A stretch of DNA of 64,000 nt. Origin: an uncultured Bacilli bacterium. GTDB lineage: Bacteria; Bacillota_I; Bacilli_A; RFN20; CAG-826. Under the pieces are notes generated by a model, which was given only the letters and a program-made list of their open reading frames with translations, had not been told where the DNA came from and searched no databases. The stretch covers positions 3,254-67,253 of the forward strand of contig CAJOMQ010000007.1 in the NCBI GenBank assembly GCA_905236715.1. Direction: 5' to 3'. Positions 1 through 55,552 of this stretch are shown piece after piece. A program made the position numbers and the translations under genes. Every line of letters begins with the position of its first letter. Within the stretch, counting starts at the first letter, position 1.

Positions 1-2
1 TT

Positions 3-281
3 AAACAAGATAATTATATTGAATGTTCTTTTATGCCTGATGTACAAAGACTGATGTTCTTATCATTTTCTAGAGACCACAAAATATTTTTTGAAGAATT
101 AAAAAAATACGTTGAAGGGACGAAAAACAAATATTTCATTCAATGTGCACTTTTGGTTGCAAGAAGAGTAGTGATTGATAATTATGAAGATGTCTCAAAA
201 AACAATCGTCAATTATTGGAATATATGAAAGCAAAAAGCGGTCCAAGGCTTCTATCTAGTGTTTTCTCAAACAAGAAATAA
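3..281 (+). CDS. Hypothetical protein, C-terminal part (reading frame is open to the left window edge)
   Basis: The frame of ORF 33..281 has no stop back to position 3, so the gene probably starts outside the window. I recognised no motif. Confidence 0.35.
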   Translation, partial: KQDNYIECSFMPDVQRLMFLSFSRDHKIFFEELKKYVEGTKNKYFIQCALLVARRVVIDNYEDVSKNNRQLLEYMKAKSGPRLLSSVFSNKK

Positions 282-401: not shown

Positions 402-548
402 TATTTCAGTCGGACCAAGTTGTATCTGATGGCGATGATTTGTACTATTATCAGTGTAGTTCCAAATTAACATACTATATTATTAATAATATAGTATATA
501 AGCTTAACACACCTCTAATTAGGATTATTACAGTCGGAATAATTTGTA
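402..548. repeat. 26-bp perfect palindrome (472-497, ATACTATATTATTAATAATATAGTAT) flanked by imperfect direct repeats TTATT[T/A]CAGTCGGA..AA.TTGTA (402-424 and 526-548)
   Basis: Read directly. I checked the palindrome base by base. The 18-nt cores CAGTCGGACCAAGTTGTA and CAGTCGGAATAATTTGTA share 15 of 18 positions. Confidence 0.7.
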
Positions 549-696
549 GCAAATAATAAATAGGGATTACTACGGTACGTTAAAGACATCTTTTTCGTTC
601 CTTTGTTTCATTTGTATAGTAAGTTGATTAAAAATGTTCATGTTAAAATATTGCATAAAAATTATTTTAGTGATAAATTATAGACGAGGTATCCAT

Positions 697-1956
697 ATGC
701 TTGGGGAAATTAAAATTAATAACTATCGTTTCTTTCTGGGTGAAAATGTTTTTTCATTTGTCGCAGATAGGCGAACAAAAAAACTAATATCTAATTCTGT
801 TCTTTTAGATAATAGACCAATACTTAAGTCACTGGCTTTTTATGGTAACAACAATTCGGGAAAAACGAATATTATAAATCTTTTTAAATCATTAAAAATT
901 TTACTTTCAGGAAAAGAGAATTTTGCTTTTAATTCTACTAGAATTTTTAGAGACTCAGATGTTGTTTCTATATCAATTACTTTCAACAATAACAATGATA
1001 TGGGGTGGATTAAGTATGATTTTGAATACAATTGTGAAACAAGAGAATTTCTAAAAGAAAAGATTAGTAATGTCTATTATTATGATACTGGGAATCCTCG
1101 TATTAATGATGTCTTTGAATTTGATAGAAATGCCAAAATACTCAAAGTATATGATGTTGATCAATCAAAATATTTAGATATGTATGTTGGCAATAAGCCA
1201 TTTGTCCATAGTGTTCGTGTCGACGAAGGCGAGTTTCAATCATTGAAAGTATATAAAACCGCACTCGAAGAGCTGGGAAACTCATTAGTTATAATTGATC
1301 TTTATAACATTCCAATTGATGGAACTTTGGAGGCTTTTAAGACTAACGATACTAAGAAAATTAACTTCATTACTTCGTTTGCGAAACATGCCGATTTGAC
1401 AATTGATAAGTTGTCATTTGCCAAAGAAAATGAAGTATCAATAACTCCAACTAGAGTGAACGAAAAAGCCCTGGAAGATGTAATACAAGTTCCTGATGCT
1501 TTCAGGTTAATGACAACATATAAAAACGCTAGGGTTCCCTCTATATTTTTTGACTCATCTGGCACAAAAAAAATTGAAGCGCTTGCCGCATATATTTATG
1601 ATTCATTGTACGAAGGCAAAACTTTAATAATTGATGAACTTGATAATGGGCTTCATTTTATGCTAACAAGAGCAATTGTTAGTTTATTTAATAATATTGA
1701 GAATACAAAAGGGCAATTATTCTTTACGGCACACGATTTGCAGCTTGTTGATTGTGCCTCTCTTTTGAGAAAAGAACAAATATATTTTGTTTCAAGAGAC
1801 GAGAACTGTGGAAAAATAAAATCTCTTGGAGACTTAACTGTTGCAGATACTGGGATTCGCGAAGGATCTGATTTGCTAAAAAGATATTATAAAGGCGATT
1901 TTGGACCTATTCCGTCCCCATCATTTATTAGGGATCTATTATTGATAGGGAAATAA
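697..1956 (+). CDS. ABC-like AAA_15/AAA_21-type ATPase (RloA/AbiLi/AriA-like partner of a TOPRIM protein)
   Basis: Walker A is FYGNNNSGKTNI and Walker B is LIIDELDNGLH. A signature-like SSGTKK and an H-loop-like FFTAHD are present, and the N-terminus IKINNYRFF is typical of this family. I moved the start to ATG 697 (M22 of the track ORF) because GAGGT lies 7 nt upstream. Confidence 0.75.
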   Translation: MLGEIKINNYRFFLGENVFSFVADRRTKKLISNSVLLDNRPILKSLAFYGNNNSGKTNIINLFKSLKILLSGKENFAFNSTRIFRDSDVVSISITFNNNNDMGWIKYDFEYNCETREFLKEKISNVYYYDTGNPRINDVFEFDRNAKILKVYDVDQSKYLDMYVGNKPFVHSVRVDEGEFQSLKVYKTALEELGNSLVIIDLYNIPIDGTLEAFKTNDTKKINFITSFAKHADLTIDKLSFAKENEVSITPTRVNEKALEDVIQVPDAFRLMTTYKNARVPSIFFDSSGTKKIEALAAYIYDSLYEGKTLIIDELDNGLHFMLTRAIVSLFNNIENTKGQLFFTAHDLQLVDCASLLRKEQIYFVSRDENCGKIKSLGDLTVADTGIREGSDLLKRYYKGDFGPIPSPSFIRDLLLIGK

Positions 1957-1957
1957 T

Positions 1958-2641
1958 ATGAATAATGCTGATTTCGAAATGAAAATTGCGGTCGTAGTAG
2001 AGGGTGACGAGGAAGAATGTCTATTTTCAATCGCAAAAGAAACCGGTCACTTTAACCCCGTGCTTGATATCGAAATAATTAATGCAGGAGGAGAAGGAAA
2101 TGTGCCAGCGTTCTTCCATGATTGCTATTCAAACCCCGTTTACAATTGTACGGTTGCCGTCTATGACGTTGACAACAAATGCAACCAAGACAAGTCCAAA
2201 TATAATTTAACAAAGAACAAATTGAAAAACATTGTTGGAGAAAATGCTGACATTGTAAGTTTCTGCACAAACCCTAACATTCTTCAAATTCTTTTGCTCG
2301 GTTGTAATACTGTTAATAATGTCTCGTTAAAGTCAACGGCAAAAACAAATAACGAGGACATTGTAAGCACATATTGGCCTAAGATTACGAGAAAAATAAA
2401 GAACGGTAAGCAAGTCAAGAAAGGCTATGATGCAAGTAAGTATCAATTAGAAATAATAAAAGATTCATATATATATGATGAAGAACCATCATATGATTAT
2501 ATGATATTGTTAAATAATTCATTAGAATTAGACATAGAGTATGAAACAAAATGTCCAGCAAGCAATGTCCAACATTTATTAAAAGCAATTAATGATGGTG
2601 ACATTAACTTTTTTAAAAATATTATAGATAAAACAAAATAG
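1958..2641 (+). CDS. TOPRIM-domain protein of the RloB/DUF4435/OLD-nuclease type
   Basis: An N-terminal IAVVVEGDEEE provides the TOPRIM glutamate and a downstream VAVYDVDNK provides the DxD. The protein is 227 aa, which fits RloB-like proteins. The ATG lies 1 nt after the ATPase stop, so the two are translationally coupled. Confidence 0.6.
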   Translation: MNNADFEMKIAVVVEGDEEECLFSIAKETGHFNPVLDIEIINAGGEGNVPAFFHDCYSNPVYNCTVAVYDVDNKCNQDKSKYNLTKNKLKNIVGENADIVSFCTNPNILQILLLGCNTVNNVSLKSTAKTNNEDIVSTYWPKITRKIKNGKQVKKGYDASKYQLEIIKDSYIYDEEPSYDYMILLNNSLELDIEYETKCPASNVQHLLKAINDGDINFFKNIIDKTK

Positions 2642-2652
2642 GAGACTCTGGC

Positions 2653-2880
2653 ATGCTTAAGTATGATGAAAAACAACACATTAAAGACATTTTAGCAGAT
2701 GGACTAAATATCAATAGAAATATTAATTTCCCTTATTTTTTAGATGCTATAGATAGTACTAATAAGAGTGTGAAAGCTTTAAAATCCCAACTCGATGCCA
2801 TTATGTATAACCAAAAGATACTCGATAATCAGTTAAGAGAAATCGCTGACCTTCTGACTAGATTACAAAGTAAGATATAA
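2653..2880 (+). CDS. Small hypothetical protein (75 aa) with predicted C-terminal coiled coil; third gene of the cassette
   Basis: The start is 11 nt after the TOPRIM gene stop and is preceded by AGGAG. The heptad-like C-terminus reads KALKSQLDAIMYNQKILDNQLREIADLLTRLQ. I see no TM segment and no recognisable family. Confidence 0.45.
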   Translation: MLKYDEKQHIKDILADGLNINRNINFPYFLDAIDSTNKSVKALKSQLDAIMYNQKILDNQLREIADLLTRLQSKI

Positions 2881-3215
2881 AACCGATAAACGAAATTGAC
2901 CAAAAAGATTTTAATTTTTCTTCGCTTCTTAGTACTGGTTTAATTATTTTGTCCACATTTTCTATAATGGGTATTTTTGCGCTTCTTCTTTTGAAGACTG
3001 ATGTTTTTTAATAATGTTGCATAGAACACTTGTCATATAATTTTAATGAGAAAAACTTGGTTTTAAACAAAAGAACGAAAAAAAAGTACAATGCATTATA
3101 CTCATTATACTTTTTCATTAACTTCGTCATTCTATTATTTTTGTCTTTTATTGTGTTTCTCTTTATAATGTTAATAACTAAATTAAGAAGTTATTAAATC
3201 AAAATGGAGCCAAAT

Positions 3216-4520
3216 ATGAAAACTGTTTATATTGCTATGTCCACGGATATCTTACACGAAGGGCATATTAACGTGATTAATGAAGGCGCTAAATACGGAG
3301 AAGTCATTATCGGTTTATTAAGCGATAAGGCTATCGCCGAATATAAAAGAATGCCTTTATTATCTTTTGAAGAAAGAAAACTCATCTTTGAAAATATCAA
3401 AAATGTCACTAAAGTCGTCAAACAAGATTCTTTGGATTATACCGATACCTTACAACAATTAAAACCAGATTACGTGGTACATGGTGATGATTGGAAAGAA
3501 GGAGTTCAACAAGAAACTAGAGCCAAAGTCATCGAAACTCTTAAAGAGTGGGGCGGACAATTAATCGAAGTACCATATACCCATGGTGTTTCCGCTTCCG
3601 AAATTGAAAATAAAGTCCGCAAATTATATAGCACACCCGATAGAAGACGTGCGGCATTAAAAAAGATGATTAACGCGAAACCCTTTATCCGTGTCTTAGA
3701 AGCGGATAATGGTTTAACTGGTCTTATTGATGAAACAACATTTGTCATTGACCCTAAAACAGGCTTTCGAAAAGAATTTGATGCCATGTGGGTATCATCA
3801 TTATGTGATTCCACGTTTAAAGGCAAACCCGATATCGAATTAGTGGATCAAACTAGCCGCATGAACACGATTAATGAAATTATGGATGTCACCACAAAAC
3901 CCATCATCTTAGATGGTGATACCGGTGGTAAAGTAGAACATTTTGTTTTTAATGTAAAGACATTAGAAAGAATGGGTGTCTCCGCGATTATTATCGAAGA
4001 TAAAACTGGTTTAAAACAAAATTCATTATTTGGTACCGAAGTCAAGCAAGTGCAAGAAGACCCCGATGTTTTTGCCGATAAGATTAGAAGGGGCAAATTA
4101 GCGCAGGTGACAAAAGACTTTATGATTATTGCCCGTTGTGAATCATTAATCGCTGGTCAAGGTATTGAAGATGCTTTATTTAGATGCCGTAAATATGTCG
4201 CCGCGGGTGCGGATGGCATTATGATTCATTCCAAAGAAAAAGATGGACAAGAAATCTTTGCCTTTATGGCGGAATTCCGCAAAGAATTCCCCTTTGTCCC
4301 CATCATCTTAGTGCCTACTTCCTATAATCAATTCACCGAAGAAGAATTATGTGAAAAAGGCGCGAATGTGATTATTCACGCTAATCACTTGGTGAGAAGT
4401 GCTTTCCCCGCGATGAAAAAAACCGCCGAAAGTATTCTCTTACATGGTAGAAGTAAAGAAGCGAGTGATGAATATTGTATGTCGATTAAAGACATCATCA
4501 CTTTAATCCCTAAGGAATAA
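3216..4520 (+). CDS. Bifunctional cytidylyltransferase-like domain / phosphoenolpyruvate mutase (Fom1-like architecture)
   Basis: The N-terminal ~135 aa resemble TagD-type cytidylyltransferases (HxGH as LHEGH, YTHGVSASEI). The C-terminal ~290 aa carry PEP mutase motifs (EADNGLTG, DGDTGG, EDKTGLKQNS). I prefer ATG 3216 because GGAG lies 6 nt upstream; the track ORF starts at 3204. Confidence 0.85.
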   Translation: MKTVYIAMSTDILHEGHINVINEGAKYGEVIIGLLSDKAIAEYKRMPLLSFEERKLIFENIKNVTKVVKQDSLDYTDTLQQLKPDYVVHGDDWKEGVQQETRAKVIETLKEWGGQLIEVPYTHGVSASEIENKVRKLYSTPDRRRAALKKMINAKPFIRVLEADNGLTGLIDETTFVIDPKTGFRKEFDAMWVSSLCDSTFKGKPDIELVDQTSRMNTINEIMDVTTKPIILDGDTGGKVEHFVFNVKTLERMGVSAIIIEDKTGLKQNSLFGTEVKQVQEDPDVFADKIRRGKLAQVTKDFMIIARCESLIAGQGIEDALFRCRKYVAAGADGIMIHSKEKDGQEIFAFMAEFRKEFPFVPIILVPTSYNQFTEEELCEKGANVIIHANHLVRSAFPAMKKTAESILLHGRSKEASDEYCMSIKDIITLIPKE

Positions 4521-4527
4521 TATACAT

Positions 4528-5640
4528 ATGGTTGATACATTACATTTTTATCAATATTTAATAGAAAACAATTTAGATTTTTTTACTGGTGTACCTGATT
4601 CTTTATTAAAAGAATTATGTGCCTATATTAAAGATAATAGTGACGCTAAACACAACATCATTGCCGCGAACGAAGGTAACGCCATTGCTTTAGCGTCCGG
4701 TTATCATTTATCCACTGGTAAATTAGGTGTGGTTTATATGCAAAATAGTGGAGAAGGTAACGCTGTTAACCCCCTCCTCTCTTTAGCGGATCCGAAAGTC
4801 TATTCCATTCCAATGTTATTAATCATTGGCTGGCGTGGTGAGCCAGGAGTGCATGATGAACCACAACATGTTAAACAAGGTGAAGTCACTTTGAAATTAT
4901 TAGAAGCGATGGATATTGAATATCGCATTCTTTCTGATAATTATGAAAATGATTTATCTTCTTTAATTTCCTTAGCGAAGAAAGAAAATAAACCGGTTGC
5001 CTTGGTTATTAAAAAAGGTACATTCTCTAAATATCAACCCATCAACAAAGACAAAATTAATATGGGTGAATTATTAAGAGAAGAAGCTTTAGAAGTGATC
5101 TTAAAAGAAATTGGCGATGATATGGTGGTATCCACAACTGGAAAAGAATCACGAGAAATATTTGAAATAAGAGAAAGATATGAACAAGGACATGGCCATG
5201 ATTTTCTCACTGTTGGTAGTATGGGACATACTTCTTCGATTGCTTTAGGTGTCAGTATTGGCACTAATAAAAATGTTTGGTGTTTAGATGGTGATGGTAG
5301 TTTTATCATGCACATGGGTTCTTTAGCTATCGTTGGACAAAATGCAGGAGATAATTATAAATATATCATCAATAATAATGCCGCTCATGAATCTGTCGGT
5401 GGTCAACCAACAGTCAGCGATAAAATTGATATCAAACAAATCTTAACAGCGTGTGGTTTTGATAAAGTTTATGAAGCGAGAACTAAAGAAGAAATCAAAA
5501 CTGCTATTAACAATATGAAAAAAGATGGCAAATCCGCGTTGATTTTATATACCAAACAAGGCAGTCGTGATGATTTAGGCCGTCCCACAACGACACCCAT
5601 TCAAAATAAAGAAGCCTTTATGGAGACTATTAAAAAATAA
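4528..5640 (+). CDS. Phosphonopyruvate decarboxylase (ThDP-dependent)
   Basis: The ThDP-binding motif is GDGSFIMHMGSL...NN. The N-terminus FFTGVPDSLLK is typical of Ppd/Fom2/AepY. The protein is 370 aa and the gene sits immediately after the PEP mutase gene. Confidence 0.85.
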   Translation: MVDTLHFYQYLIENNLDFFTGVPDSLLKELCAYIKDNSDAKHNIIAANEGNAIALASGYHLSTGKLGVVYMQNSGEGNAVNPLLSLADPKVYSIPMLLIIGWRGEPGVHDEPQHVKQGEVTLKLLEAMDIEYRILSDNYENDLSSLISLAKKENKPVALVIKKGTFSKYQPINKDKINMGELLREEALEVILKEIGDDMVVSTTGKESREIFEIRERYEQGHGHDFLTVGSMGHTSSIALGVSIGTNKNVWCLDGDGSFIMHMGSLAIVGQNAGDNYKYIINNNAAHESVGGQPTVSDKIDIKQILTACGFDKVYEARTKEEIKTAINNMKKDGKSALILYTKQGSRDDLGRPTTTPIQNKEAFMETIKK

Positions 5641-7391
5641 TGAAAGCTTTAATATTTAATTCCGGTATCGGTAAAAGGATGGCGGAACTTACCGCGAATA
5701 ATCCTAAATCCATGGTGCATCTATATAATGATGAAACCATTTTTGAAAGACAAATTAGACTTCTCCAAGAAGCGGGTATCACCGAAGTTATCATTACCAC
5801 TGGTCCATATCCAGAGATGTTAAAAAATATATGCGCAAAGTCGTGTTATAAGAACATGCATTTTTATTTCCCTCATAACGAGATATATGACGCTTCTAAT
5901 TATATTTATTCCATGTATAAGGCGAGAGATTATATCGATGATGATATTTTAATGATGCATGGTGATTTGGTCTTTGATCGCACGTTAATACCGCAGATAT
6001 TAAAAAACCCCGAAGAAAACCTCTGCTTAATTAATAAATATAAACCTCTTCCCGAAAAAGATTTTAAAGGAAGAATTATCAATAATGAATTAAGAGAAGT
6101 TTCAATCAATATCTTTGATAGTGATTGTTATGCTTTTCAGCCATTATATAAATTATCTTATAAAGTCATCAAAAGATGGTTAGATAATGTTATTAAATAT
6201 GTGAAAAATAACAACATCAATGTTTATGCAGAAAACGCTTTAAACGAAGTCGCGGAAGGACTTCATATTAGACCCTTTTCTTATCAAAGACATTTTATTG
6301 ATGAAGTGGATAATATTGATGATTTAAATCGCGTTAACACAGAGATTCAATCTTGGGATTATCAAAAACAAAGCATAAAAATAACCACTGAATATTTATT
6401 ACCTTTAAAAACACAGTTAAAGAAAATCAATAGTGAGAAACCTTTTATTGTGGTGGACCATTTCTTAAAAAAAGAAATCGCACAAAAATTACCACAAGGT
6501 GTCGTTTTTTCTTCTTTCACCCCTAATCCAAAATATGAGGAGATGTTAGAAGGATTGAAATTATTTAAAAGTAGTGGGTGTGATTCCATTGTCTCCATCG
6601 GTGGTGGTTCTTGCATTGATGTGGCTAAAGTCATCAAATTATCTCTTAATACTGACCTTACTAGTGATATTCCCACTTTCCAACAAACATATCACTATAA
6701 CCATATCAAACATATTTGTTTACCCACCACAAGTGGCACTGGTAGTGAATCAACTAGACACGCAGTCTTATATCTAGATGATATAAAACAATCAATATCT
6801 CACCCCACCTTAGTGCCTGATTATGTCTTATTATGCGCGAAATTTATCTATACTGTCCCTCCTTATCAAAGAAAAGCCACAATGATGGATGCTTTATGTC
6901 AATGTATGGAATCTCTTTGGTCCAAAAAAGCCACCAAAGAAAGTCGTAGATACGCATTAAAAGGAATAAGACTAATAAAAGATAATTATAAGGATTATAT
7001 AGAATTAGATAAGAAGGGTATGAAAAATATCCAAATCGCGGCGAATTATTCTGGTAAAGCCATCAATATCAGTGAAACCACTGCCGCGCATGCGATGAGT
7101 TATAAATTAACTTCTTTATATCATATCCCCCATGGTCATGCGGTCGCGATATGTATGAACGCTATATTACATAATTGTCATGTAAAGACAAAATATAAAG
7201 ATATAGATATAGAGAAATTATTCTATGATATCGTGGATGATTTCCAACTAGATATGTATCCAGAAATCAAAAAAGAAGATCTTCCTCTTCTTGTTGATTC
7301 TGTTAATCCTATTAGATTAAAGAATTTTCCATATCACATTAATATTAAAAAATGTTATTCAAGTATCATGAATCAAATAAATAACAAATAA
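5640..7391 (+). CDS. Fusion of a LicC-like nucleotidyltransferase and an iron-containing alcohol dehydrogenase (putative phosphonoacetaldehyde reductase)
   Basis: The N-terminus ALIFNSGIGKRM is an NTP-transferase G-x-G-x-R loop. The C-terminal half carries Fe-ADH motifs GGGSCIDVAKV, PTTSGTGSE and HAMSY...PHGHAVA. The start overlaps the stop of the previous gene (TAATG). Confidence 0.8.
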   Translation: MKALIFNSGIGKRMAELTANNPKSMVHLYNDETIFERQIRLLQEAGITEVIITTGPYPEMLKNICAKSCYKNMHFYFPHNEIYDASNYIYSMYKARDYIDDDILMMHGDLVFDRTLIPQILKNPEENLCLINKYKPLPEKDFKGRIINNELREVSINIFDSDCYAFQPLYKLSYKVIKRWLDNVIKYVKNNNINVYAENALNEVAEGLHIRPFSYQRHFIDEVDNIDDLNRVNTEIQSWDYQKQSIKITTEYLLPLKTQLKKINSEKPFIVVDHFLKKEIAQKLPQGVVFSSFTPNPKYEEMLEGLKLFKSSGCDSIVSIGGGSCIDVAKVIKLSLNTDLTSDIPTFQQTYHYNHIKHICLPTTSGTGSESTRHAVLYLDDIKQSISHPTLVPDYVLLCAKFIYTVPPYQRKATMMDALCQCMESLWSKKATKESRRYALKGIRLIKDNYKDYIELDKKGMKNIQIAANYSGKAINISETTAAHAMSYKLTSLYHIPHGHAVAICMNAILHNCHVKTKYKDIDIEKLFYDIVDDFQLDMYPEIKKEDLPLLVDSVNPIRLKNFPYHINIKKCYSSIMNQINNK

Positions 7392-11605: not shown

Positions 11606-13045
11606 ATGGCGGAAAAACGTGATTTAGAACAACAAGTTGAACAATACGAAAAAGATCTTGCCAATAGCGATCCAAAAAAGAAAAAGAAATCGACTATTAA
11701 GTATATACTTAATATTTCTCTTGTTTTAATTGTTACTGCGGTATCTATTACCCTTACGTTATGGGGTAATTTTAATAATATTCTTGCTAATTTACTCAAA
11801 TGTGACTGGAGATGGCTTTTAGCCATCGTTGGTGTCATGGGATTATCTATTTTAATCCGTTCTTTCATTTTATATTGCTTTGCTCGTTTATTTACTCGTG
11901 ATTATAAATTCCGTCAAAGTATTGCCTGTGACCAAATTGGTCAATTTTATAACGCAGTCACTCCTGGTGCCAGCGGTGGGCAAATTATGCAAGCATACAC
12001 ATATAAAAAACAAGGCGTGCAAATCTCTAGCGCGGTTAGTGCATTAGCGATGTATTCCATCATGTATCAGATTGTTTTAATTATTTATAACATCATTGCT
12101 TTCATCTTTAAATTTGACGCCATTATGAGCATTGATGTCGCTGATATTACCATTGGAGGATTTACCATACATTTACCGATTTTAGTTTTAACAATAATTG
12201 GATTTGTTTTAAACCTCGGAGTTATCTTACTTGTGCTTTTAATGGGTTATTGGCATGGTTTCCATAATTTTATTATGGGACCGATAATTGGTTTATTAGC
12301 GAAAATCCACATTTTAAAAAATCCTGATAAAACCAGAGAAAATTTGCGTGTTCAAGTGGAAAACTTCAAAATTGAATTCCGTCGATTGATTACGAACATC
12401 CCATTCTTTATTTTGGTATTTGTCTCTTTTGCGGTTTATATCACTGTCAAATTTTCTGTTCCTTATTTCTGTGGTTTGGCTTTGGGCAGTGAACATTATC
12501 AAATGAAATATTTTTGGGATAGTATTTTCTTAGGCAATTATCACCAAATGGTGACAGGCCTTATTCCTATTCCTGGTAGTGCCGGTGTATCCGAATATTT
12601 CTTCCTTACATTGTTCTATAACCGCGCAGAACCCTCCGCGGGATTCTTCTATAAATTTGCTTACGCTGATACAGCGATAGAATGTGAATCGATGACCAAA
12701 GCGGCACTACTTATTTGGCGTTCAATCACATTTATTATTCCTATTACTGTCGCTGGTTTTACTACTGCCTTTTATCGTGCTTCACCAAAACAAGAAATTC
12801 AAGAAAGAGACGATATTCTCAATCGTGGCACTTTTGTCAATTTGCAAAAAGAAACTTATGTTATGCGTAAAGAAGAAGTGGATGCCTTGGTTAACACCAC
12901 GAGATTATCGCGTCAAGCTGTCAGAGATAAATTATTTAATGCCCAAAATAGGAAGAAAAAAGACAATACGATAAATGAAAACGCCACTCCCGGAAGGGTG
13001 AGCGATGGTGACTATTCAAATGTGAATATTGAAGAGGACGAATAA
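11606..13045 (+). CDS. Flippase-like membrane protein (UPF0104 / lysyl-phosphatidylglycerol synthase TM-region family)
   Basis: The protein is polytopic. It carries the family-typical motif YNAVTPGASGGQ after the second or third TM helix. Confidence 0.65.
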   Translation: MAEKRDLEQQVEQYEKDLANSDPKKKKKSTIKYILNISLVLIVTAVSITLTLWGNFNNILANLLKCDWRWLLAIVGVMGLSILIRSFILYCFARLFTRDYKFRQSIACDQIGQFYNAVTPGASGGQIMQAYTYKKQGVQISSAVSALAMYSIMYQIVLIIYNIIAFIFKFDAIMSIDVADITIGGFTIHLPILVLTIIGFVLNLGVILLVLLMGYWHGFHNFIMGPIIGLLAKIHILKNPDKTRENLRVQVENFKIEFRRLITNIPFFILVFVSFAVYITVKFSVPYFCGLALGSEHYQMKYFWDSIFLGNYHQMVTGLIPIPGSAGVSEYFFLTLFYNRAEPSAGFFYKFAYADTAIECESMTKAALLIWRSITFIIPITVAGFTTAFYRASPKQEIQERDDILNRGTFVNLQKETYVMRKEEVDALVNTTRLSRQAVRDKLFNAQNRKKKDNTINENATPGRVSDGDYSNVNIEEDE

Positions 13046-27648: not shown

Positions 27649-27671
27649 AATAAGTGCAATATAATAAAAGC

Positions 27672-27779
27672 ACTTCAGGGTGACGAGAATTACGTCAACT
27701 GGCGGTATAGCCCGCGAGCTTATCAAAGCATGATTAGGTGAAATTCCTAAGCCAACGGTAAAGTCCGGATAGCAGAAGT
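27672..27779 (+). promoter_or_regulatory. FMN riboswitch (RFN element) aptamer
   Basis: The conserved blocks are CUUCAGGG...CGGCGGUAUAGCCCGCGAGC...GAUUAGGUGAAAUUCCUAAGCCAACGGUAAAGUCCGGAUAGCAGAAG. P1 is formed by ACUUC/GAAGU. It lies upstream of a RibU-like transporter gene. Confidence 0.9.
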
Positions 27780-27793
27780 TAATTGCTATTTAT

Positions 27794-35449: not shown

Positions 35450-35786
35450 ATCCGATCTGGATAATTGCTGCTTTATAGTAGAGGAAAGTCCATGCTCGCA
35501 CAGGCTGTGATGCCTGTAGTGATTGCGCTAGCGGAAAAAATAACGCTAGGCACGCAGGAGTGCGTGACGGCAGAGTAAGACCTAAAGGGAAACCCATGGT
35601 GGAGCTCTTGAAAGTGCCACAGTGACGAAGCTTTATAGAAATATAAAGGTGGAACGCGGTAAACCCCACAAGCGAGAAACCCAAATTTGGTAGGGGAAGT
35701 TGAAACTGGGAAACGAACTAGAATCAACAGGCTTAGCCTAGATAAATAATTATCCTAGACAAAACATGGCTTACAGGATCGGATAC
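35450..35786 (+). ncRNA. rnpB: RNase P RNA, type B
   Basis: The conserved blocks are GUAGAGGAAAGUCCAUGCUCGCAC, GUGCCACAGUGACGAAG, GGUGGAACGCGGUAAACCCC...GCGAGAAACCCAAAUUUGGUAGGGGAA and AACAUGGCUUACAG. P1 is formed by AUCCGAUC (35450-57) and GAUCGGAU (35777-84). Confidence 0.93.
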
Positions 35787-55477: not shown

Positions 55478-55552
55478 TGGCTGGGGTGACTGGGATCGAA
55501 CCAGTGACTGGTGAATTCAGAGTCCACTGCCTTACCGCTTGGCTACACCCCA
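55478..55552 (-). tRNA. tRNA-Gln (anticodon CUG), CCA encoded
   Basis: I folded the reverse complement by hand as UGGGGUG-UA-GCC-AAGCGGUAA-GGC-A-GUGGA-CUCUGAA-UUCAC-CAGUC-ACUGG-UUCGAUC-CCAGU-CACCCCA-G-CCA. The U1:A72 pair is typical of bacterial tRNA-Gln. Confidence 0.9.

Follow-up and report, generated by a model that had tools for sequence, protein, structure and literature searches.

A mobile three-gene cassette of an uncultured Bacilli bacterium with a divergent AbiL-like core and a small helical protein: a candidate anti-phage system

Near the 5' end of a 64,000-nucleotide stretch of contig CAJOMQ010000007.1 from an uncultured Bacilli bacterium (the whole stretch is called the window below) lie three forward-strand genes, here named A (697..1956), B (1958..2641) and C (2653..2880). 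We put at about 70% the probability that they form a horizontally mobile abortive-infection (Abi)/toxin-antitoxin (TA) anti-phage system, with a divergent AbiL as its core and C as an accessory that would modulate or adapt it. A is an AbiLi-type ABC ATPase (AAA_21) of 419 aa, B a divergent 227-aa TOPRIM protein of the RloB/AbiLii superfamily, presumed to be the nuclease effector or toxin, and C a 75-aa orphan helical protein whose gene ends the mobile unit on its 3' side. The A-B core is an ordinary but very divergent AbiL variant; C is the novel part of the cassette.

An ATPase and a TOPRIM protein of AbiL type

A preliminary description of the window had proposed an ABC-like ATPase, a TOPRIM protein and a small coiled-coil protein as one defence cassette, and three co-oriented open reading frames (ORFs) do occupy the places claimed, separated by 1 nt (A-B) and 11 nt (B-C). 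The frame of A is open over 634..1956, which gives 440 aa counted from the first ATG (634). The likely start is ATG 697, since a GAGG lies 7 nt upstream of it (686-689), the same start is called on L007, the window's own contig, and the N-termini of homologues agree; the 420 aa first proposed was essentially right. A scored above threshold on Pfam AAA_21 (E 1.1e-20, 75 bits, cutoff 27) and reached E 2.7e-54 (182 bits) on the PADLOC AbiLi model PDLC02335, on which an authentic Lactococcus prophage ATPase used as a control scored 4e-76. Models of GajA (E>=3e-4), mad3 and PtuA type were far weaker than AbiLi, and no match was found among Protein Data Bank (PDB) sequences.

The protein carries a Walker A motif (GNNNSGKT, with Lys at K56), a signature-like DSSGTKK, a Walker B motif (IIDELDNGLH) and an H-loop (TAHD); all but the signature-like motif had been pointed out before. 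Since these ATPase motifs are kept in 13 of 13 compared cassettes of the clade, and are recognisable in three canonical AbiL/RloAB outgroups, the ATPase is presumably active. The ratio of nonsynonymous to synonymous substitution rates (dN/dS) of A against locus L001 is 0.05. The closest relatives that carry an annotation, found on plasmids and prophages, share just 24-29% identity with it. In all four of these relatives that were inspected, the next gene encodes an 'RloB family protein' or an 'abortive phage resistance protein' (Lactococcus prophage proPhi7). These partner genes score strongly on Pfam RloB (1e-25 to 1e-40) and on PADLOC AbiLii (1e-18 to 1e-32), which makes them valid references.

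Gene B had been proposed to encode a TOPRIM fold on the strength of an N-terminal VVVEGDEEE and an internal YDVDN. Both motifs are present, and an alignment of 31 family members is invariant at E15-G16-x-E18-E19, G45, Y69-D70-x-D72, S101-F-C-T-N-P106 and Q110. In the AlphaFold2 model (predicted local distance difference test score, pLDDT, 94.7; predicted template modelling score 0.91), E15 ends strand 1 (8-14), at the passage into helix 1, and D70-x-D72 ends strand 3 (64-70). B as modelled has a TOPRIM fold in which Glu and DxD take their canonical places, the arrangement described for OLD and for RloB, itself a Toprim member (PMC12065111). Foldseek returned the C-terminal TOPRIM regions of OLD nucleases as best matches among solved structures (probability 0.98-1.0, E ~4e-3). 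Among viral models the best match was an 'RloB-like protein', aligned over its full length (E 4.6e-5, template modelling scores 0.58/0.61).

The B of the window gave no match in NCBIfam, in PHROGs, in a PDB profile search or in a tblastn search of plasmids, and the family placement came through its relatives. Nine of 31 close family members match PADLOC AbiLii (best E 2.3e-6), as do 39 of 42 distant relatives; 17 of the 42 match Pfam RloB, and a profile alignment (hhalign) of the distant relatives with authentic RloB gave a probability of 97.6% (E 2.6e-12). The fold match, these intermediates, the AbiLii matches within the family and the invariant Glu and DxD together make B, as judged from sequence and model, an outlier branch within the TOPRIM family of RloB/AbiLii. 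This family comprised 35 clusters in a word search and 199 matches at E<=1e-3 among 1.84 billion representatives, and it is confined to uncultured Bacilli/Mollicutes-like metagenome-assembled genomes. A phage origin of B and C was considered and rejected because IMG/VR viral contigs held no relatives of either.

The preliminary description had placed the pair in the supergroup of AAA_15/21 ATPases with TOPRIM partners without assigning a subfamily and had proposed profile searches; with an AbiLi-type A and a TOPRIM-fold B the supergroup stands, and the AbiLi match of A and the relatives of B settled the subfamily as AbiL, B being neither DUF4435/AriB nor a split class-1 OLD. It is very improbable that the genes are instead an RloA/RloB-type accessory of a restriction-modification (R-M) system, or a PARIS. 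The first description of RloB came from type I R-M loci (cited in PMC10440598), and one related locus, L039, has an adjoining methyltransferase gene, but neither the window cassette nor most related loci are flanked by hsd or other R-M genes. A does match AriA models (E 2e-21), but only over residues 279-353 and ~30 orders of magnitude below AbiLi. B of the window has no AriB or DUF4435 match in Pfam or PADLOC, and among its 42 distant relatives AriB is matched by one (E 0.002) against the 39 for AbiLii.

A mobile unit that ends in a small helical protein

Alignment of the window with L001 by blastn showed homology over 645-2874 only, at 81.6% identity, with unrelated flanks on both sides. Since homology is limited to a short leader plus A, B and C, and ends at the stop codon of C, the three genes move as one unit. 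The co-mobile leader of ~50 nt (645..696, forward strand) contains the GAGG ribosome-binding site of A. An inverted repeat (I1, 586-608 / 3065-3087) was rejected as the boundary of the cassette because it lies outside this unit; its arms are probably chance AT-rich matches.

Context was assessed by exact-protein look-up, and across 39 loci hmmsearch distinguished three kinds among 17 distinct cassettes: 11 with A-B-C, four with A-B and no C, and two with HigB-HTH-SecB-C (HTH, helix-turn-helix). The A-B-C order, with gaps of 1-18 nt, recurs in the 11 distinct cassettes with unrelated flanks, an arrangement far beyond chance. A metagenome pattern scan with the C profile yielded one usable locus. 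An apparent case of pseudogenised A with intact B and C (L027) was discarded because it is a scaffold gap, filled with N, that splits the gene.

As first described, C is a 75-aa ORF that begins 11 nt after B behind an AGGAG; this ribosome-binding site, read from the sequence, lies at 2640..2644 on the forward strand, where it overlaps the stop codon of B, 8 nt 5' of the C ATG. The C family has at least 57 clusters, all of 56-79 aa and none annotated, and its members are homologous across cassettes whose B proteins are down to 39% identical. For the closest pair, the window and L001, the dN/dS of C is ~0.13, comparable with A and B, and in its other context, described below, it is 0.11; the gene is real, and purifying selection acts on it in both settings. 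Its AlphaFold2 model (pLDDT 90.6) has a helix at 4-18, a conserved loop NINRNIN and a 49-residue helix at 26-74 with a heptad-like hydrophobic pattern. The N-terminal half is the best conserved (EK..IK..L..GL.INRNIN.PYFL.AID.T), with a mean identity of 66% vs 43% for the C-terminal half. No family match was found in Pfam, PHROG, NCBIfam or PADLOC; scans of 56 members against Pfam and PHROG gave scattered coiled-coil noise only, and the best Foldseek hit in the PDB, at E 2.3, was no fold match.

C follows B in 11 of the 15 distinct A-B cassettes of the clade, so the proposal that all three genes occur together holds for these and fails for the remaining four. The four form one clade, which indicates that C was gained or lost just once, and all their catalytic motifs are intact, which shows that the core chemistry does not depend on C. 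C is an accessory, not essential to the chemistry of A and B, and a role as the obligatory antitoxin of B is unlikely for the same reason. In one C-less locus (L013) an unrelated, very basic 87-aa ORF (5595-5858) starts 27 nt after B, at the place of C, and may be a replacement accessory. The canonical pairs at L017-L020 have no C gene.

The third gene had been called foreign to the canonical two-gene systems, which was borne out, but it is not specific to this cassette: the family also supplies the last gene of two cassettes of the toxin-antitoxin-chaperone (TAC) type, after a Gp49/HigB-like toxin, an HTH antitoxin and a SecB-like chaperone. Modules of TAC type defend against phage (bioRxiv 10.1101/2024.02.24.581848), and in that source we found no mention of a fourth component. 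More widely, the literature searched on AbiL/RloAB and on TAC yielded neither a small third AbiL protein nor a fourth conserved TAC gene. Homology between the two TAC-C loci also stops at the C stop codon.

These four-gene cassettes lie in Acholeplasmataceae-type genomes (L021-L024, 4799-6216; L029-L030, 4779-6216) and are mobile as a unit; the collection lists one C variant in 50 of its blocks. Around the TAC-C cassette and its neighbours are intergenic repeats of 80-130 nt with 81-88% identity (L029 2722-2801, 4390-4468, 6293-6424 and 7340-7419; L021 4411-4498 and 11984-12131), which may be insertion marks resembling miniature inverted-repeat transposable elements or repetitive extragenic palindromic sequences.

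Could C be a hitchhiker, with a mini-function of its own or as a selfish passenger, behind a two-gene AbiL-like pair that is the whole functional system? The intact motifs of the clade without C fit that idea, as does the presence of C in an unrelated cassette that shares no partner motif with this one; no predicted interaction of C was found either. A sigma-70-like promoter match (GTGACA-16-TATTAT, 10/12) also lies within the 3' end of B at 2598-2625, 28 nt before the C start, and if it works C could be transcribed alone as well. C is nonetheless always 2-27 nt behind the preceding gene, on the same strand and with its own ribosome-binding site; the homology of the mobile unit stops at its stop codon in both cassette types, its divergence tracks that of A and B, and it never occurs alone in the 17 distinct contexts sampled. 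We therefore regard a hitchhiking C as unlikely and favour an accessory that belongs to the cassette.

Defence-island setting

On its contig the cassette closes a defence island, and the gene immediately upstream, the island's last before the cassette, is a forward-strand Metallophos + nSTAND3 (STAND-type) gene of 1003 aa (L007 5313-8324), whose 3' end occupies window positions 1..281. Upstream on the contig the island (L007 635-8324) further holds an AriA-like ATPase (PADLOC E 2e-20) with a 199-aa partner, a 365-aa unknown protein and a PDC-S01 candidate (E 2e-53). Related cassettes have as neighbours AbiH, Fic, SIR2, reverse transcriptases, a caspase-like peptidase, TIR-STAND, an SLFN-type helicase, tandem patatins, Abi_2 and a methyltransferase/HATPase pair. 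Neither the window nor the contig has R-M genes beside the cassette, and a methyltransferase neighbour was seen in 1 of the 17 contexts (L039). Patchy distribution, defence-gene neighbours and differing, unrelated flanks place the locus in defence islands of the accessory genome and not in the core genome, in agreement with the placement first suggested for it.

This setting bears on whether the cassette is a plain TA addiction module that stabilises a genomic island and has no role in phage defence. AAA + TOPRIM pairs do behave as TA in neutralisation assays (PMC10440598), and the other context of C is also TA. The cassette, however, is consistently found among dedicated defence genes; its closest named relative, AbiL, has demonstrated Abi activity, and TAC modules defend too (PMC13064643; bioRxiv 10.1101/2024.02.24.581848). 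One role does not shut out the other. Addiction without defence seems to us a good deal less probable than a hitchhiking C; an anti-phage system remains the preferred reading.

Downstream lies a phosphonate and surface-polymer cluster (window 3204-7391, also 11606-13045), the surface-decoration neighbourhood noted at the outset. Its genes encode a fusion of CTP_transf_like with phosphoenolpyruvate (PEP) mutase, a thiamine pyrophosphate-dependent decarboxylase, an NTP_transferase + Fe-ADH fusion and, later, LPG_synthase_TM. Polysaccharide genes adjoin A-B-C in three independent contexts (the window, L001 and L025). At L004 and L006 (1-1373), a few kb 5' of A-B-C and next to an AEP-TOTE/DEAD helicase, a second AAA_21 ATPase (~450 aa, truncated at the locus end) stands with a 172-aa partner, in appearance a further ATPase-based candidate system of that island.

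The non-coding flanks of the cassette (282-696, 415 nt; 2881-3203, 323 nt) are AT-rich as described, with a GC content of 0.25-0.28 vs 0.32-0.37 within the cassette. Contrary to what had been claimed, they are not unusual for the window, since ~10 further gaps of 350-800 nt separate ORFs of >=150 aa, though some of these gaps may contain small or RNA genes. The spacers on either side of the cassette gave no Rfam match to a structured RNA or riboswitch at E<=1, and a consensus scan found no simple terminator 3' of C. Between C and the PEP-mutase gene, a TTG-start 55-aa ORF (3030-3197) has a strongly hydrophobic C-terminal half; it is uncalled on the source contigs and probably spurious. The housekeeping RNAs of the window, none of them near the cassette, are an RNase P class B (35453-35778), a flavin mononucleotide riboswitch (27667-27784) and a tRNA-Gln(CTG) (55478-55552, minus strand). 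The class B RNase P fits the origin of the window in an uncultured gut bacterium of Bacilli/'Mollicutes' type.

Within the upstream flank, a conserved 67-nt element (522..588, forward strand) contains two direct half-sites (GATTnTTACAGTnCG, ~42 nt apart). It recurs twice at L003, in the defence island of another organism, before an unrelated Fic gene (452-518, 92.5%) and before that locus's own A gene (6542-6607, 79%). There is no RNA-structure signal, as the folding of the element does not surpass that of shuffled sequences (z +0.8 and -0.8), nor does the window show an enrichment of the half-site motif. The element may serve defence genes in common as an operator or promoter, with an uncertain tie to the system.

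Proposed action and comparison with known systems

Several results weigh against an AbiL-like system with C as a functional part. The sole Pfam match of the window's B is OLD-like_TOPRIM over residues 11-53, at 21.2 bits and below the 23.2 cutoff; it matches neither Pfam RloB nor any PADLOC model at E<=1, and an AbiL call that needs both proteins would for this reason probably miss the system. When the B family was aligned directly by hhalign with four authentic RloB/AbiLii sequences, the probability was a weak 7.6%, with all four motifs in register. B lacks the Glu (SNPCFE) and the His (LLHF) kept in the four aligned authentic RloB sequences, so that its chemistry or substrate may differ. For C, any contact with A or B is hypothetical and the modelled fold is uninformative; no motif common to A or B and the TAC proteins was found (bit scores <=5). 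The context sample, at 17 distinct cassettes, is small.

Under the AbiL-like reading, and by analogy with PARIS and AAA/TOPRIM TA pairs, an oligomer of A would hold B inactive until a phage-derived trigger releases or activates it. B would then cut nucleic acid, most likely tRNA or another RNA and perhaps DNA, so that growth stops and infection is aborted. C, a co-transcribed and co-mobilised helical accessory, would modulate or adapt this activation, and its conserved N-terminal half would contact an external phage or host factor. Binding of an external factor by that half is probable because the C family also ends HigB-HigA-SecB modules, which share no homologous protein with A or B. More tentatively, and with the odds in our view against it, C may be a portable helical module of 70-76 aa for TA-type immune systems, attachable at the 3' end of cassettes with unrelated mechanisms, in which the N-terminal motif binds a common phage or host factor and the variable coiled-coil tail docks onto a cassette-specific sensor and sets or broadens the trigger.

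In OLD and GajA the ATPase and the TOPRIM domain are fused, and Gabija adds a UvrD-like helicase. The cassette resembles class 1 OLD and Gabija in that the TOPRIM of B is closest to OLD C-terminal regions among solved structures and that its ATPase belongs to the AAA_15/21 group. It differs in having A and B as separate genes 1 nt apart, with no adjacent UvrD-like gene and with a B of the RloB branch. Judged by its sequence, the core is not OLD or Gabija, because the proteins are unfused and a helicase is lacking; it is not an R-M-embedded RloAB, because hsd genes are lacking; and it is not PARIS, because DUF4435/AriB is lacking.

PARIS shares with the cassette the split into an AAA15/21 ATPase sensor and a TOPRIM effector, and falls into one supergroup with AbiL (PMC11464382). 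It offers the mechanistic model that is best understood: the nuclease is kept sequestered on a scaffold of the ATPase and, once freed by a phage trigger, cleaves tRNA (PMC11464382; PMC13064643). Here, by contrast, B is of RloB type and not DUF4435, A is only a partial AriA match, and PARIS lacks a small third protein. The NetFlax pairs of AAA with TOPRIM_OLD/RloB, where an AAA antitoxin keeps the TOPRIM toxin neutralised (Ernits et al. 2023, PMC10440598), are likewise two-gene AAA + TOPRIM/RloB modules, a parallel in favour of a TA reading of A-B; compared by description, they are bicistronic with no reported small helical third gene. TAC HigB-HigA-SecB resembles the cassette as the second home of the C family, in one mobile unit, but the window holds no TAC genes, the published TAC is tripartite, and no protein is common to it and A or B.

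AbiL is the closest counterpart. This two-gene Abi system, in which an ABC ATPase is paired with a TOPRIM protein, is grouped with PARIS (PMC13064643, PMC11464382), and AbiLi/AbiLii of Lactococcus lactis, like homologous 'ATP-binding protein + RloB family protein' pairs on plasmids and prophages, has, in the same order and tightly coupled, an ATPase of ~410-450 aa followed by a TOPRIM protein of ~190-250 aa. The order of motifs is also shared (EGxxE, DxD, NP-hydrophobic, P-T/S-N). The first gene of the cassette is of AbiLi type and the second is a remote homologue of AbiLii/RloB with the same fold, but B matches AbiLii/RloB at no curated threshold, the RloB Glu/His are replaced, and a third gene follows in most members of this clade where AbiL is two-component (PMC13064643). 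Because of the failed direct match and the extra gene, the cassette is filed as an AbiL variant and not as a plain member. Its core extends the AbiL/RloB group by a branch that is deeply divergent and probably escapes current detection, an incremental gain that is useful for defence-system models. C is a conserved orphan common to two unrelated Abi/TA architectures and, if it is a swapped module, offers a testable handle on how such systems are activated and regulated.

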